The translations under genes were made by a program, and so were the position numbers. 64,000 nucleotides of DNA from an uncultured bacterium (GTDB taxonomy: Bacteria > Babelota > Babeliae > Babelales > Babelaceae): contig CAVRKK010000001.1 in assembly GCA_963722385.1 (NCBI GenBank), forward strand, positions 186,813 through 250,812, written 5' to 3'. How positions within the stretch are numbered: the stretch's first letter is position 1; every line of letters begins with the position of its first letter. Shown here one piece after another: positions 29,847 through 37,530 of the stretch. The notes beneath the pieces are model-generated. The model made no database searches and was not told the origin of the DNA. It saw only the letters and a program-made list of their open reading frames with translations.

Positions 29847-30202
29847 ATCGCGTACGGCTGACGGAACAGAGCGAATTGAATTGAAATTGAATCGCCTGCC
29901 CGGCTGGGGGCTAAGGGACATCGTCCCTTAGCAAATCCCCAAAGCGTTATGCTTACAGGCTTGGTGTGTGTAGTTATCGTTCGCCAAAGCGCACGATAAC
30001 TTACGCCATTATCATGTGCGCTACGCTTCATGATAAAAATCTATTTTCCGTCAGGAAAATTGCGGTAGCCATAATCATGCGCCACGCATGGTTATGGCAT
30101 TGAAAAAGAAAAGACAGAGCATATGCTACTACACATATTGGTGTGGGTGCAGGGCCGCTGCCCTGCCGCTCGACGCGGAGTCGCCCCAGCCGGGCAGGCG
30201 AT
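29847..30202 (+). repeat. Structured palindromic repeat element, copy A (MITE-like unit 29889-30202 with 20-nt terminal inverted repeats)
   Basis: The TIRs are AATCGCCTGCCCGGCTGGGG (29889-29908) and CCCCAGCCGGGCAGGCGATT (30183-30202). Six hairpins lie between them. The core 29847-30068 is near-identical to the reverse complement of 37259-37478. Confidence 0.85.
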
Positions 30203-30251
30203 TTACTCTATTTCGCTTTGTGCGCGGAGACGCCATTTTACGTAATTCGGC

Positions 30252-31199
30252 TCACGCTTGCTTACTTCGCGCGCGTGCCTGCAGTTCGCCCTGGAAAAAA
30301 AGATAAAGCCCAACCGTGATACCGACGATGGCAAAGTAATGCTGCCACCTAAGCCCCTCATGTAAGAAAATATAACCGTAGAGAGCACCAAAAAGCGGCG
30401 ATAGAAAGCCAGCGCAGGCAACAAAATTTAGCGAGTAATACTTGAGCAGCCAGCCGTACAAATTATATACGACAACATTAGAGATCAGAATTAGGCCGGC
30501 AACCGTTATGATAAAAAAGCGCATGTTAGTGATCGGCGCGACTCCTGGCTGCCGGAAGAAATACCACGTAACAAAACTCATGATACCACCAGCAAGCATA
30601 GCAAACCCATTAATCGTCGCAAGCGAATAGCCACGATTCATTAAGTCTTTAATAATAAACCATGCATAGGCACCCGATATAATCGACATAAGAAGCACAA
30701 GCTCAGGAACAGAAAAAGATAAAAGATCCGTACATCCCGCCTCGCCTCTGGTCATTAAAGGTAATAGCCCAATAAATGCACAGCAGGCCCCGGCTAAGGA
30801 TAATCGAGTAACTCTTGTTTTGTAGAGCAAGAACGAAAATATCATAGCAACGAAGGGAGTAGTCGCGTACATAATATTGACCTTAATTGACGAAACGAAT
30901 TGTAAAGCCCAAAACTCTGGCACAAACGATAAATATATATGAAAAAAGGTTACGCGACCAAAATCAACGAGGTCCCGGAGGCTTGGCCGAAAGACCATGC
31001 GGTTCTTTATTGCGTAAAAGCCTAACAACAGGCAACCAGAAACAACCATCCGTGCTCCAATCAAAAAGAGCGGATCAGCATAAGCCACAGCAGCCTTGCC
31101 AAGCGTAAAGGTGAGCGCAAGAAGGGCATACAATAGGACAACTAAAAACACGACAGGCCCCCAGGCAATTAAGAATGTTGCGATCGACAAGCATCCCAC
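30252..31199 (-). CDS. EamA/DMT-family transporter
   Basis: It has about 10 hydrophobic helices in two halves, with the size and pattern typical of EamA-domain permeases. It uses a GTG start. Confidence 0.7.
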   Translation of the reverse strand: MGCLSIATFLIAWGPVVFLVVLLYALLALTFTLGKAAVAYADPLFLIGARMVVSGCLLLGFYAIKNRMVFRPSLRDLVDFGRVTFFHIYLSFVPEFWALQFVSSIKVNIMYATTPFVAMIFSFLLYKTRVTRLSLAGACCAFIGLLPLMTRGEAGCTDLLSFSVPELVLLMSIISGAYAWFIIKDLMNRGYSLATINGFAMLAGGIMSFVTWYFFRQPGVAPITNMRFFIITVAGLILISNVVVYNLYGWLLKYYSLNFVACAGFLSPLFGALYGYIFLHEGLRWQHYFAIVGITVGLYLFFQGELQARARSKQA

Positions 31200-31299
31200 A
31201 TGCTTAACGCGTCATGCTCTAGTATAAAACATTTTAATACTAGGCGCGAATTGTTTTGCCGCAGGCACCCTGGGATATTGTGGTAGGCATAGTAAAGAC

Positions 31300-31488
31300 T
31301 TAGCGGGCGCGCCGGTGCTGGCGATCACCAGGGAACTTTTGATGCGCAGCTCGGTAATTATCGACTTTGTCATCGCTGTGGCCATGCTGATGTGCTCTCT
31401 TTTTCCGCTCGGCATCGAGTGAGCGCATAATTTTGCGTAGCCTGCTTTTGATCGTTCTCGATGTTGCGATTTTTCCTCTATCGGCCAT
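31300..31488 (-). CDS. Small basic hypothetical protein (62 aa)
   Basis: AAGGTG lies 5 nt upstream of the ATG. The protein is highly basic and His-rich. I recognised no family. Confidence 0.35.
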   Translation of the reverse strand: MADRGKIATSRTIKSRLRKIMRSLDAERKKRAHQHGHSDDKVDNYRAAHQKFPGDRQHRRAR

Positions 31489-31711
31489 AATTCACCTTTT
31501 ATTTCATCCATAGATCAAGTATAGTAAAAAGTCGAGCGCGGTTTCAAGACTTTCTTTGTTGCAGAGAGCCAGGGAGCGATAGATCAGCCGAAGCAGAAAG
31601 CCGATCATTTATTATCGAGTTGACTTCAAAATATAAATGCTTTAAATTGTTTAACGATACCTGCATTTTTTAAGTTAGCAAGTTAAAACAAGCACATTCA
31701 AGGCATTGATC

Positions 31712-35428: not shown

Positions 35429-35473
35429 CATATTAGTATGATGTCAAGCAGGCTGAGCTAAAGGAGACCATTT

Positions 35474-36175
35474 ATGAGAACGCTAATGCGGCTTGCGGGA
35501 CTTTGCTTACTTGCCATATCGCTTGACGCCAAAAAACCAACATTTAAGCCATTTATGCTACCGCCACTTCCCTATGCAGAATGTGCTTTAGAGCCGTTTG
35601 TTGATACAGAAACGATGCATCTGCACCATAAAATGCATCACCAAAAGTATGTGGACAACCTGAATGCTGCGGTGCGCAAAGACCCTGCTCTTTATACCAA
35701 AAGCCTCGAGGAGCTTGTTAAAGAATGGCCATGTATTCGTGCAGACATACGTGAGGATGTTCGCAACAATGCTGGTGGTCACTTAAATCACTCGCTTTTC
35801 TGGTTATGGATGACGCCCACAAAGACGGTGCCTTCCGAGCGCCTGGACTCAGCTCTTATCAAAGCGTTTGGGAGCGCCAAGAAATTTAGAGAGCAGTTTG
35901 CCCAAGCTGCCGCAAAAGTATTCGGGAGCGGCTGGGCCTGGCTTTGTCTTGATAGCCAAGGCAACCTTGTCATAACCACGACGTCAAATCAAGATAATCC
36001 ACTTACATCCGGCCATGTGCCGATTCTGGGCCTCGATGTGTGGGAGCACGCTTATTATCTTAAGTACAATAACCGCCGCAGCGACTATCTCGATGCATGG
36101 TGGAATATCGTTAATTGGCCGGAGGTTGAGCGGCGTTATGAAAGCAGTCGTAAGCCGTGTGCTCAATCACTATAA
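35474..36175 (+). CDS. Fe/Mn-family superoxide dismutase with N-terminal signal peptide
   Basis: It has LPPLPYAECALEPFVDTETMHLHHKMHHQKYV, GGHLNHSLFW and DVWEHAYYL. The leader MRTLMRLAGLCLLAISLDA precedes the conserved start. AAGGAG SD is present. Confidence 0.9.
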   Translation: MRTLMRLAGLCLLAISLDAKKPTFKPFMLPPLPYAECALEPFVDTETMHLHHKMHHQKYVDNLNAAVRKDPALYTKSLEELVKEWPCIRADIREDVRNNAGGHLNHSLFWLWMTPTKTVPSERLDSALIKAFGSAKKFREQFAQAAAKVFGSGWAWLCLDSQGNLVITTTSNQDNPLTSGHVPILGLDVWEHAYYLKYNNRRSDYLDAWWNIVNWPEVERRYESSRKPCAQSL

Positions 36176-36235
36176 GTTGATAAAGACCTAAAAAGTTAAA
36201 CACTGGGTCGCCTTTACCAATATTGCGTTTTTATT

Positions 36236-37054
36236 TTATGCTACGCCATCTAATCGTACGTTATTATCAACAATATACACATTTTTTATACCCAGCGATT
36301 TTCCTGAGGCTCCATCAATATCTATTAATGCGCCATTGAGTATATAAGGGCCTTCTGTTTCCACGTCGAAGCGGACGGGCATTTGCGTCAGCGTATTATG
36401 GATGATAGCTTCTTTTTTCACACCAATTATGGAGTCCAGCGGCCCGCACATACCGAGATCGGTTATGAAAGCCGTCCCTCCTGGAAGAATTCTGGCATCT
36501 GCTGTTTGGACGTGGGTATGGGTACCGACGACGGCGCTTACTTGACCGTCAAAGTAGCAGGCTATTACGGTCTTTTCTGAGGTTGCTTCAGCGTGTACGT
36601 CGATAAGAATGATCTTGGTCTTTGTTTTCAAAAAAGTTAACGCTGATTCTACGGCGCGCAGTGGGCAGGCGACCTGCTCCCTCATAAATATACGTCCTTG
36701 AACATTGATCACGCCTATGGTGAGCCCTTTGCAAATAAAGGTGCCAACGCCGGTGCCCGGGCATGCGTTGGGAAAGTTGAGTGGGCGTAGCAAATCTTTA
36801 TGTTCCGCAAGATACGGATAAATATCTTTTTTTTGCCAAATATGATTACCGGTTGTGACCATATCAACGCCGAGGTGCTTAAAGAATTTCATAATTTTCG
36901 GCGTGATGCCGCGGCCGTCGGCGCTGTTTTCGCCATTTACGATAACAGCATCGATGGCGTGTTCTTTTCTTAATGTTGGCAAGTGCTTTTGCAGGATGGC
37001 CTGTCCTGGTGCGCCAACGACGTCGCCGATGAAGAGTATTCGTAGTTTTTCCAT
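36236..37054 (-). CDS. ymdB: YmdB-family metallophosphoesterase (2',3'-cyclic-nucleotide phosphodiesterase-like)
   Basis: It has RILFIGDVVGAPG, VIVNGENSADGRGIT, TTGNHIW and GTHTHVQTAD. It lies downstream of rny on the same strand, as in many genomes. Confidence 0.85.
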   Translation of the reverse strand: MEKLRILFIGDVVGAPGQAILQKHLPTLRKEHAIDAVIVNGENSADGRGITPKIMKFFKHLGVDMVTTGNHIWQKKDIYPYLAEHKDLLRPLNFPNACPGTGVGTFICKGLTIGVINVQGRIFMREQVACPLRAVESALTFLKTKTKIILIDVHAEATSEKTVIACYFDGQVSAVVGTHTHVQTADARILPGGTAFITDLGMCGPLDSIIGVKKEAIIHNTLTQMPVRFDVETEGPYILNGALIDIDGASGKSLGIKNVYIVDNNVRLDGVA

Positions 37055-37084
37055 GTTGTTTCCCTATTGCTGCTGGGGTTGGTG

Positions 37085-37530
37085 CGTGCGCTTACGCAGC
37101 CGACTTCGCCGAGGCGGTGGGAACGCTTACGCAGCGGGCGCGACTCCGCGTCGAGCGGCAGGGCGGCGGCCCTGCACCCGTCGATTTGTTTTTGTTACTT
37201 ACGTGCCTCATCTTCTTTACGTCTATGATGCTCTAACCATGCGAGGCGCATGCTTAGAGCTACCGCAATTTTCCTGACGGAAAATAGATTTTTATCATGA
37301 AGCGTAGCGCACATGATAATGGCGTAAGTTATCGTGCGCTTTGGCGAACGATAACTACACACACCAAGCCTGTAAGCATAACGCTTTGGGGATTGCTAAG
37401 GGACGATGTCCCTTAGCCCCCAGCCGGGCAGGCGATTCGATTCAATTCAATTCGCTCTGTTCCGTCAGCCGTACGCGACTTCGCCTAGGCTACACCCACC
37501 AAGCAGGCGATTCAGTTCAATTTCAATTCA
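37085..37530 (-). repeat. Structured palindromic repeat element, copy B (inverted relative to copy A), inserted between rny and ymdB
   Basis: The reverse complement of 37259-37478 matches 29847-30068 with two 1-nt indels and one substitution (manual alignment). 37141-37260 is a diverged match to 30067-30182. The terminus motif caggcgattc(a/g)(g/a)ttcaatt is duplicated at 37427-37455 and 37503-37530. Confidence 0.85.

Follow-up and report, generated by a model that had tools for sequence, protein, structure and literature searches.

Analysis of a 64,000-nt stretch of contig CAVRKK010000001.1 (assembly GCA_963722385.1; hereafter the window), from an uncultured member of the Dependentiae, revealed two inverted copies, A and B, of a new repeat family on either side of a 7.2-kb block running from ymdB to eamA. 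In kind, the family is a MITE-like (miniature inverted-repeat transposable element) or mosaic intergenic repeat. The observations at this locus are probably explained by a lineage-specific MITE-like family whose copies inserted separately at the two sites, exchanged sequence by gene conversion, and possibly inverted the ymdB...eamA block. The host genome comprises 1.6 Mb in two contigs, and the RNase Y encoded in the window clustered with Dependentiae/Babeliales metagenome-assembled genomes. The repeat features of the window are as follows.

29845–29888, plus strand: left-extension module of copy A, AAATCGCGTACGGCTGACGGAACAGAGCGAATTGAATTGAAATTG, common with copy B
29889–30202, plus strand: copy A, 314 nt, MITE-like, with serial hairpins inside
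29848–30069, plus strand: near-identical tract (putative conversion tract), paired with 37478–37259
37124–37438, minus strand: copy B, left terminal repeat intact, hairpin 5 of the GCTCT/AGAGC allele
37441–37481, minus strand: left-extension module of copy B, delimited by alignment and exact blocks
37089–37115, minus strand: GC-rich tail unit, GCCTCGGCGAAGTCGGCTGCGTAAGCG, a family module present behind other copies too
37439–37513, minus strand: polymorphic 75-nt segment, consisting of a solo terminal-repeat-like unit, GAATCGCCTGCTTGG, and the extension module
48709–48876, plus strand: third, partial copy (3' half), with 75–78% similarity to the corresponding segments of A and B

Pairwise alignment of 29800–30120 on the plus strand against 37210–37530 on the minus strand, together with a repeat finder and exact-block matching, bore out the original prediction that the inverted copies are nearly identical: 29848–30069 and the reverse complement of 37259–37478 differed by two 1-nt indels and one substitution. 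Three exact blocks were identified, namely A 29848–29885 with B 37478–37441 (38 nt), A 29889–29932 with B 37438–37395 (44 nt), and A 29934–30069 with B 37394–37259 (136 nt); between them lay the 1-nt indels at 29884/5 and 29933 and the substitution at 29888. The repeat finder returned three contiguous inverted arms for the pair, 93–98% complementary, and the BLAST E-value of A against B was 1.6e-115. Past 30069, the copies differed at five positions in hairpin 5 and similarity was then lost, reappearing at 88% in a 56-nt GC-rich 3' piece (30145–30200 vs 37179–37124). Copy A was bounded by perfect 20-nt terminal inverted repeats and had a fold z of −10.9, and the right end of copy B was of the ...GCTGCGTAAGCG type. 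The left-extension module of A was weakly matched in the copies at C2:126307 and C2:86443 of the host genome, and the copy at C2:126254–126673 aligned to 434 nt of the spacer between rny and ymdB. The 75-nt leader segment on the B side is considered polymorphic because it is missing from contig L136 (GCA_052916065.1), from another metagenome.

BLAST analysis of the host genome gave 43 matches to the element, a non-coding unit of about 314–330 nt with terminal inverted repeats. The copies were counted as about 20 full-length and 18 partial ones; besides the full-length copies, the BLAST matches included about 15 'half' copies beginning near position 147, the remainder being fragments. The indels seen in the copy alignment would disrupt any open reading frame (ORF). 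In an alignment of 19 copies the left end, (G)AATCGCCTGCGCGGCTGGCG, was constant, while the TTGAA-like or (TTGAA)n-like tract in front of it varied; the alignment also revealed an internal layout of five or six serial hairpins followed by a GC-rich hairpin. Right ends were variable: about eight copies ended in the complement of the left end AATCGCCTGCGCGGCTGGCG, and others, including B, in the ...GCTGCGTAAGCG unit, at times with added GC-rich tail units, with many being degenerate. The terminal repeats recurred at the ends of copies, and compensatory double changes were found at 13 of 58 consensus base pairs across 18 copies. Based on approximate gene calls, 37 of 38 copies were intergenic, and the 5' end lay 10–110 nt past a co-oriented stop codon in 26 of the 38 (15 of the 20 full-length copies). 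Copies were clustered along the genome, with 14 neighbour gaps below 8 kb vs 7.2 ± 2.2 expected. The segments between other neighbouring copy pairs contained housekeeping-looking ORFs and are therefore not cargo.

The family shares with MITEs, which span about 100–600 bp, its small size, lack of coding capacity, terminal inverted repeats, dispersed copies, and presence or absence between genomes. An autonomous insertion sequence (IS) with the same ends, a further mark of MITEs, was not found: no terminal-repeat pair 0.6–3 kb apart was detected in the genome, where DDE transposase families were not exhaustively searched. No consistent target-site duplication was seen in the 19-copy alignment, and the empty sites of the same-genus relative G001 were too diverged to align. 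Rfam returned no match at E ≤ 1 over 28–40 kb of the window, and a search of 40 relatives found no element, G001 alone giving a GC-rich match, of 39 nt. The REP/BIME class (repetitive extragenic palindrome/bacterial interspersed mosaic element) was set aside on the basis of the unit, which is a 314-nt array of different hairpins with terminal repeats and not a single 20–40-nt palindrome, and a link to REP-associated tyrosine transposases (RAYT) was rejected since no family module lay within several kb of the two intact Y1_Tnp genes. These Y1 genes encode IS200/RAYT-like transposases of about 155 aa, stand alone, and are located at C2:344423–344782 and C2:544726–545085; two further, degraded Y1 copies are present in the genome, and no tie between the Y1 genes and the repeat family was found.

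Comparison of A and B with the rest of the family revealed that their likeness is confined to one end. They were 98% identical over the first 185 nt, where the family median was 83%, and not unusually alike over the remainder; only the 5' 225 nt matched, the 3' parts belonging to different subfamilies. Contigs from other assemblies, recovered by exact look-up of window proteins, showed that the alleles at these sites differ among strains. In L145 (ERZ25039509), site A had identical flanks on both sides and a different element allele, which was 325/326 identical (99.7%) to C2:558179–558504 and only about 80% identical to B. In L133 (ERZ25039519, 211 kb), A was as in the window and B had consensus bases at 37419 and 37427, the two positions at which B of the window carries the variant bases of A. 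Besides A and B, the two pairs with the highest similarity in the genome were likewise neighbours: C1:105264/109442, in direct orientation with 4.2 kb between the copies, and C2:124679/126307, inverted with 1.6 kb between them. Both were 97–99% identical over the 5' 185 nt only. Because the match is limited to the 5' 225 nt and the strain alleles differ in L145 and L133, the simplest reading of these sequences is that the near-identity of A and B represents a 225-nt gene-conversion tract in otherwise different copies, left by ectopic conversion of short tracts that recurs between copies close to one another, and not co-insertion or a pair of young twins. Separately, the C2:124679/126307 pair brackets an ankyrin-like ORF and is a further candidate invertible segment.

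The genes around and between the two copies are as follows.

28687–29826, plus strand: orf379, leader-bearing, next to copy A on its outer side and converging with eamA
30252–31199, minus strand: EamA-family transporter (Pfam), inner neighbour of copy A
31212–35428, unstranded: variable ymdB–eamA filling (orf99, ankyrin, orf70, FAD/amine-oxidase), lineage-specific
within 31212–35428, minus strand: orf99, 99 aa, basic, pI 9.8
31706–33724, plus strand: ankyrin protein (Pfam)
33897–34109, plus strand: orf70, 70 aa, with leader
34166–35428, plus strand: FAD/amine-oxidase protein (Pfam)
35474–36175, plus strand: Fe/Mn superoxide dismutase (SOD; Pfam), with N-terminal leader
36236–37054, minus strand: ymdB, YmdB-like phosphoesterase (Pfam)
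37055–37532, minus strand: rny–ymdB spacer, 478 nt, nearly all repeat-derived
37533–39092, minus strand: rny, RNase Y (Pfam), stop codon at 37533–37535
41073–42152, minus strand: recA (PF00154), corresponding to L133 6941–8020 and mapped onto the window

Pfam matches and ORF properties gave the same enclosed genes as had been listed from the sequence, namely EamA, a small basic ORF, the ankyrin protein, a secreted ORF, the FAD protein, SOD and YmdB, and the coordinates agreed in placing copy B in the 478-nt gap between the rny stop (37533–37535) and the ymdB start (37054). No Pfam match was obtained for orf379.

In a comparison of 49 Dependentiae loci, g187-g115-(g98)-rny-ymdB-(variable)-eamA was the order found on one strand, and the rny–ymdB gap had a median of 6 nt and was ≤ 40 nt in 42 of the 49, compared with 478 nt in the window. 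In G001, the junction reads rny-TAA-CTAT-ATG-ymdB, a spacer of 4 nt, so that the pair is indeed normally tight, as had been proposed. Past ymdB, G001 carries SOD, whose position and opposite-strand orientation agree with those in the window, then eamA and an amino-acid permease, with an eamA–permease spacer of 82 nt. Both element sites were empty in this insert-free relative and the gene order was the same; orf379 and the FADox-orf70-ank-orf99 genes were not found in its 19.9-kb syntenic region. The present orientation had been presumed ancestral, and this held: ymdB and eamA face the same way as rny in the window as in relatives, the order of G001 matches, and about 49 Dependentiae loci hold rny-ymdB-(...)-eamA on one strand.

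Among Dependentiae, the ymdB–eamA interval forms a hotspot of variation, with lengths that run from an overlap up to 6.2 kb (window 36236–30252; L122:11309–13578). In the window, it holds an exported Fe/Mn SOD in common with G001, and an FAD oxidase, an ankyrin protein and small ORFs that were not found there. The three large rny–ymdB gaps among the 49 loci were those of L081, L064 and L047. At L081:11531–12366, the junction is altered by a tandem ymdB paralogue; at L064:11498–12030, it contains a 66-nt perfect palindrome and a small leader-bearing ORF; and at L047:11498–11872, it contains a strongly structured 372-nt insert (z = −7).

From these comparisons, A and B would have inserted at two separate intergenic sites after the split from the same-genus relative, B entering the normally 4–6-nt rny–ymdB junction and A entering downstream of eamA. 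RecA-type ectopic conversion between the neighbouring copies would then have homogenised the 5' 225 nt, and the same intermediates, if resolved as crossovers in the 136-nt core, would invert the 7.2-kb ymdB...eamA block. The recA gene itself lies about 4 kb from the locus, inside the window.

A contig with the arrangement expected from such a crossover was found by exact look-up of the RNase Y protein. This contig, L134 (GCA_052916045.1, 6744 nt), begins with zapA and rny; eamA follows in opposite orientation, and after it come a 62-aa ORF, the ankyrin gene, orf70 and the first part of FADox. By BLAST, its positions 1–2452 corresponded to window 39592–37136 in reverse and its positions 2112–6744 to window 29845–34479 at 99.83%. 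The junction consists of the outer flank of B and three B 5' markers, followed by the 136-nt common core, after which come the hairpin-5 allele of A, the right terminal repeat of A and eamA. Judged by its sequence, this junction is the exact product expected from an A × B crossover in the identical core. The claim that the repeats are substrates for inversion thus stood in part: strain-level conversion is visible and L134 has the predicted junction, but this is one short contig that could represent an assembly switch in the 136-nt stretch. We consider the chance that the flipped form is real to be about one half.

The strongest rival explanation, which we rate only slightly below an even chance, is that no inversion has taken place and that L134 is an assembly chimera, crossing from B to A in the 136-nt identical stretch between static repeats. 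The switch point of L134 falls exactly inside the exact-identity block, its sister assemblies give short contigs (L136, 2354 nt; L149, 1664 nt), suggesting short-read data, and Logan contigs of the same organism all end 32 nt into the shared sequence. L134 is ambiguous because an inverted repeat yields the same assembly graph in both orientations. However, it extends 2.1 kb and 4.5 kb into unique sequence without other anomaly, its only differences from the window outside the repeat are five substitutions, and 150-nt reads are able to span the 137 nt separating the diagnostic markers. Conversion between the same two copies is also independently documented, so that crossovers are to be expected.

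Several points weigh against the explanation by insertion, conversion and possible inversion. The inverted form was seen once, by one junction, in a lone contig whose crossover falls where a short-read assembler cannot resolve it. Two long-read assemblies, the window genome and L133, each cross both junctions in the reference order, as L145 does at junction A, and the reciprocal junction (orf379-element-ymdB) was not recovered among the contigs from exact-protein look-ups. Exact-pattern scans of metagenomes with an A/B-specific 35-mer and the rny 3' end gave no matches, in a collection that may lack near-identical records. The direction of conversion is ambiguous, and the L145 allele could be the converted one. 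Compared with L145:11205–11532, both terminal repeats of copy A share two variant bases (CCCGG/GGGG), at positions 11 and 19, and with the change present in both, the repeats (29889–29908 and 30183–30202) remain perfectly complementary. A simple B-to-A conversion fails for these variants, as the right end of B cannot be the donor; they may have arisen by intra-element templated repair or by conversion from copies such as C2:237454. Finally, neither a target-site duplication nor an autonomous partner sharing its ends turned up as a clue to how the family moves.

A further proposal concerned expression, namely that copy B acts at the RNA level, as a terminator, attenuator, processing site or stabiliser, and so uncouples ymdB from rny or tunes it relative to rny, and that the pair may be a selected recombinational switch taking ymdB off the rny transcript and onto that of orf379. 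Folding of the spacer RNA in the rny/ymdB sense gave −196 kcal/mol (z = −4.0), in addition to the stable fold of copy A, and the compensatory changes maintain the hairpins. The position of copies behind co-oriented stops (26/38; 15/20 full-length), as if in 3' untranslated regions, and the structured or palindromic inserts in the same spacer of two other Dependentiae lineages (L047 and L064) are consistent with such a role, as is the rny–ymdB operon of B. subtilis described in a passage of PMC8266666 that cites Diethmaier 2011. On the other hand, consensus scans of the sense strand of rny/ymdB detected no intrinsic terminator, nor did they detect a sigma-70-like promoter directed at ymdB. The copies show a modest orientation bias (about p = 0.03–0.04, on approximate gene calls), and hairpin conservation may equally reflect DNA-level needs of mobility. 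The ymdB gene is intact in all accurate contigs, which is compatible with plain read-through; besides the window, three short-read contigs have both an intact ymdB and the inner part of B, indicating that the insertion is fixed in several samples and tolerated. Overall, a functional role is unlikely, although the spacer might still affect ymdB expression. It is a little less likely again that the MITE pair is a RecA-driven flip-flop, polymorphic in wild populations, that makes a deeply conserved operon of RNA metabolism switchable in an obligate intracellular bacterium. If it were, ymdB would leave the RNase Y transcript on inversion and come to lie behind orf379, and rny and eamA would become convergent.

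It is similarly doubtful that A and B were both recently transposed from one master copy, without gene conversion. In favour of this, the family is mobile or has been so in the past, G001 lacks an element at either site, and the L145 version of copy A is nearly identical to the copy at another locus, C2:558179. In contrast, identity between A and B covers the 5' 225 nt only, and their 3' 90–130 nt are no closer than those of random members. Hairpin 5 carries different alleles in the two copies, GCCAT...ATGGC and GCTCT...AGAGC, both of which occur family-wide, and the shared tract reaches 44 nt past the terminal repeat. Moreover, the different alleles at site A occur between identical flanks, indicating allele replacement and not a new insertion.

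The inverted repeats at both ends might speak for a composite transposon or a site-specific invertible cassette as the nature of the 7.2-kb block. This idea can practically be dismissed, since ymdB, SOD and eamA are found at the same position and in the same order in the element-free G001 (in keeping with the original prediction that the block is not a simple composite transposon), the enclosed genes contain no transposase or recombinase domain, and the repeats are 300-nt dispersed elements and not short recombinase sites. A composite transposon was accordingly rejected on this synteny and on the non-coding nature of the elements, and a Hin/Gin/Fim-type invertible segment on the dispersal of the repeats and the lack of a recombinase or integrase domain in the ten proteins encoded within or beside the block.

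Additional differences between strains and assemblies were observed. Window positions 42620–42814, in a SurA-like gene, contained 12 substitutions in 200 nt relative to L133, which was otherwise 99.9% identical; this cluster resembles a segment imported from another strain by recombination. Two genes of L133 are frameshifted by single-base insertions, namely ymdB (L133:12324, window 36769; called as 149 aa) and the ankyrin gene (L133:15556, window 33538). These are probably long-read consensus errors, because short-read contigs carry an intact ymdB. The final 393 nt of L145 (L145:12024–12416) were high in GC and unrelated to the genome, a chimeric contig end that warns on assembly quality.

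The Dependentiae (TM6) parasitise protists and are either uncultured or difficult to culture, and to our knowledge almost nothing has been reported on how their genomes change. A full-text literature search returned no paper naming both Dependentiae and miniature inverted-repeat elements, and none was found naming the NCBI assembly accessions. At this locus, a lineage-specific repeat family broke one of the most conserved gene junctions of the phylum, and its copies visibly exchange sequence between strains and may flip a 7-kb block in which ymdB lies together with genes for an ankyrin protein and an exported SOD. For metagenome assembly, such repeats yield alternative arrangements, real or spurious. 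Small repeats are already well known as recombination substrates in Neisseria and enterobacteria, so that this is an ordinary kind of plasticity in a little-studied phylum; the main interest lies in the Dependentiae host and in the A/B recombination being directly visible in population data.

The closest analogues are the Correia elements of Neisseria and the enterobacterial REP/BIME/ERIC (enterobacterial repetitive intergenic consensus) repeats. REP, BIME and ERIC repeats are known as ectopic-recombination substrates and mRNA-stability elements. Like the present family, they are mosaic, modular, hairpin-forming and intergenic, and they are transcribed within operons, as the present family presumably is; however, REP units are 20–40-nt palindromes mobilised by the RAYT genes they flank, whereas here a 314-nt composite with terminal inverted repeats at its limits forms the unit and the Y1 genes have no modules nearby. 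Correia repeat enclosed elements (CREE) are likewise small and non-coding, with terminal inverted repeats and many intergenic copies, often between co-directional genes, and a passage of PMC3454330 reports CREE-mediated inversion between gonococcal strains. The Dependentiae element differs from CREE in having no sequence relationship or Rfam match, being twice as long, containing five or six serial hairpins, being modular (half copies, an optional left extension and GC-rich tail units), and showing no recognisable TA target duplication. Inversions between inverted IS or rRNA copies resemble the mechanism proposed here, with RecA crossover in repeats longer than the minimal processing segment and homogenising gene conversion, whereas the present repeat is about 225 nt (136 nt exact) and non-coding and its flipped state is represented by one metagenome contig. 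Finally, the rny–ymdB operon of B. subtilis has the same gene pair in the same order, tight in 42 of the 49 Dependentiae loci, but in the window the pair is parted by 478 nt of repeat-derived, strongly structured sequence.

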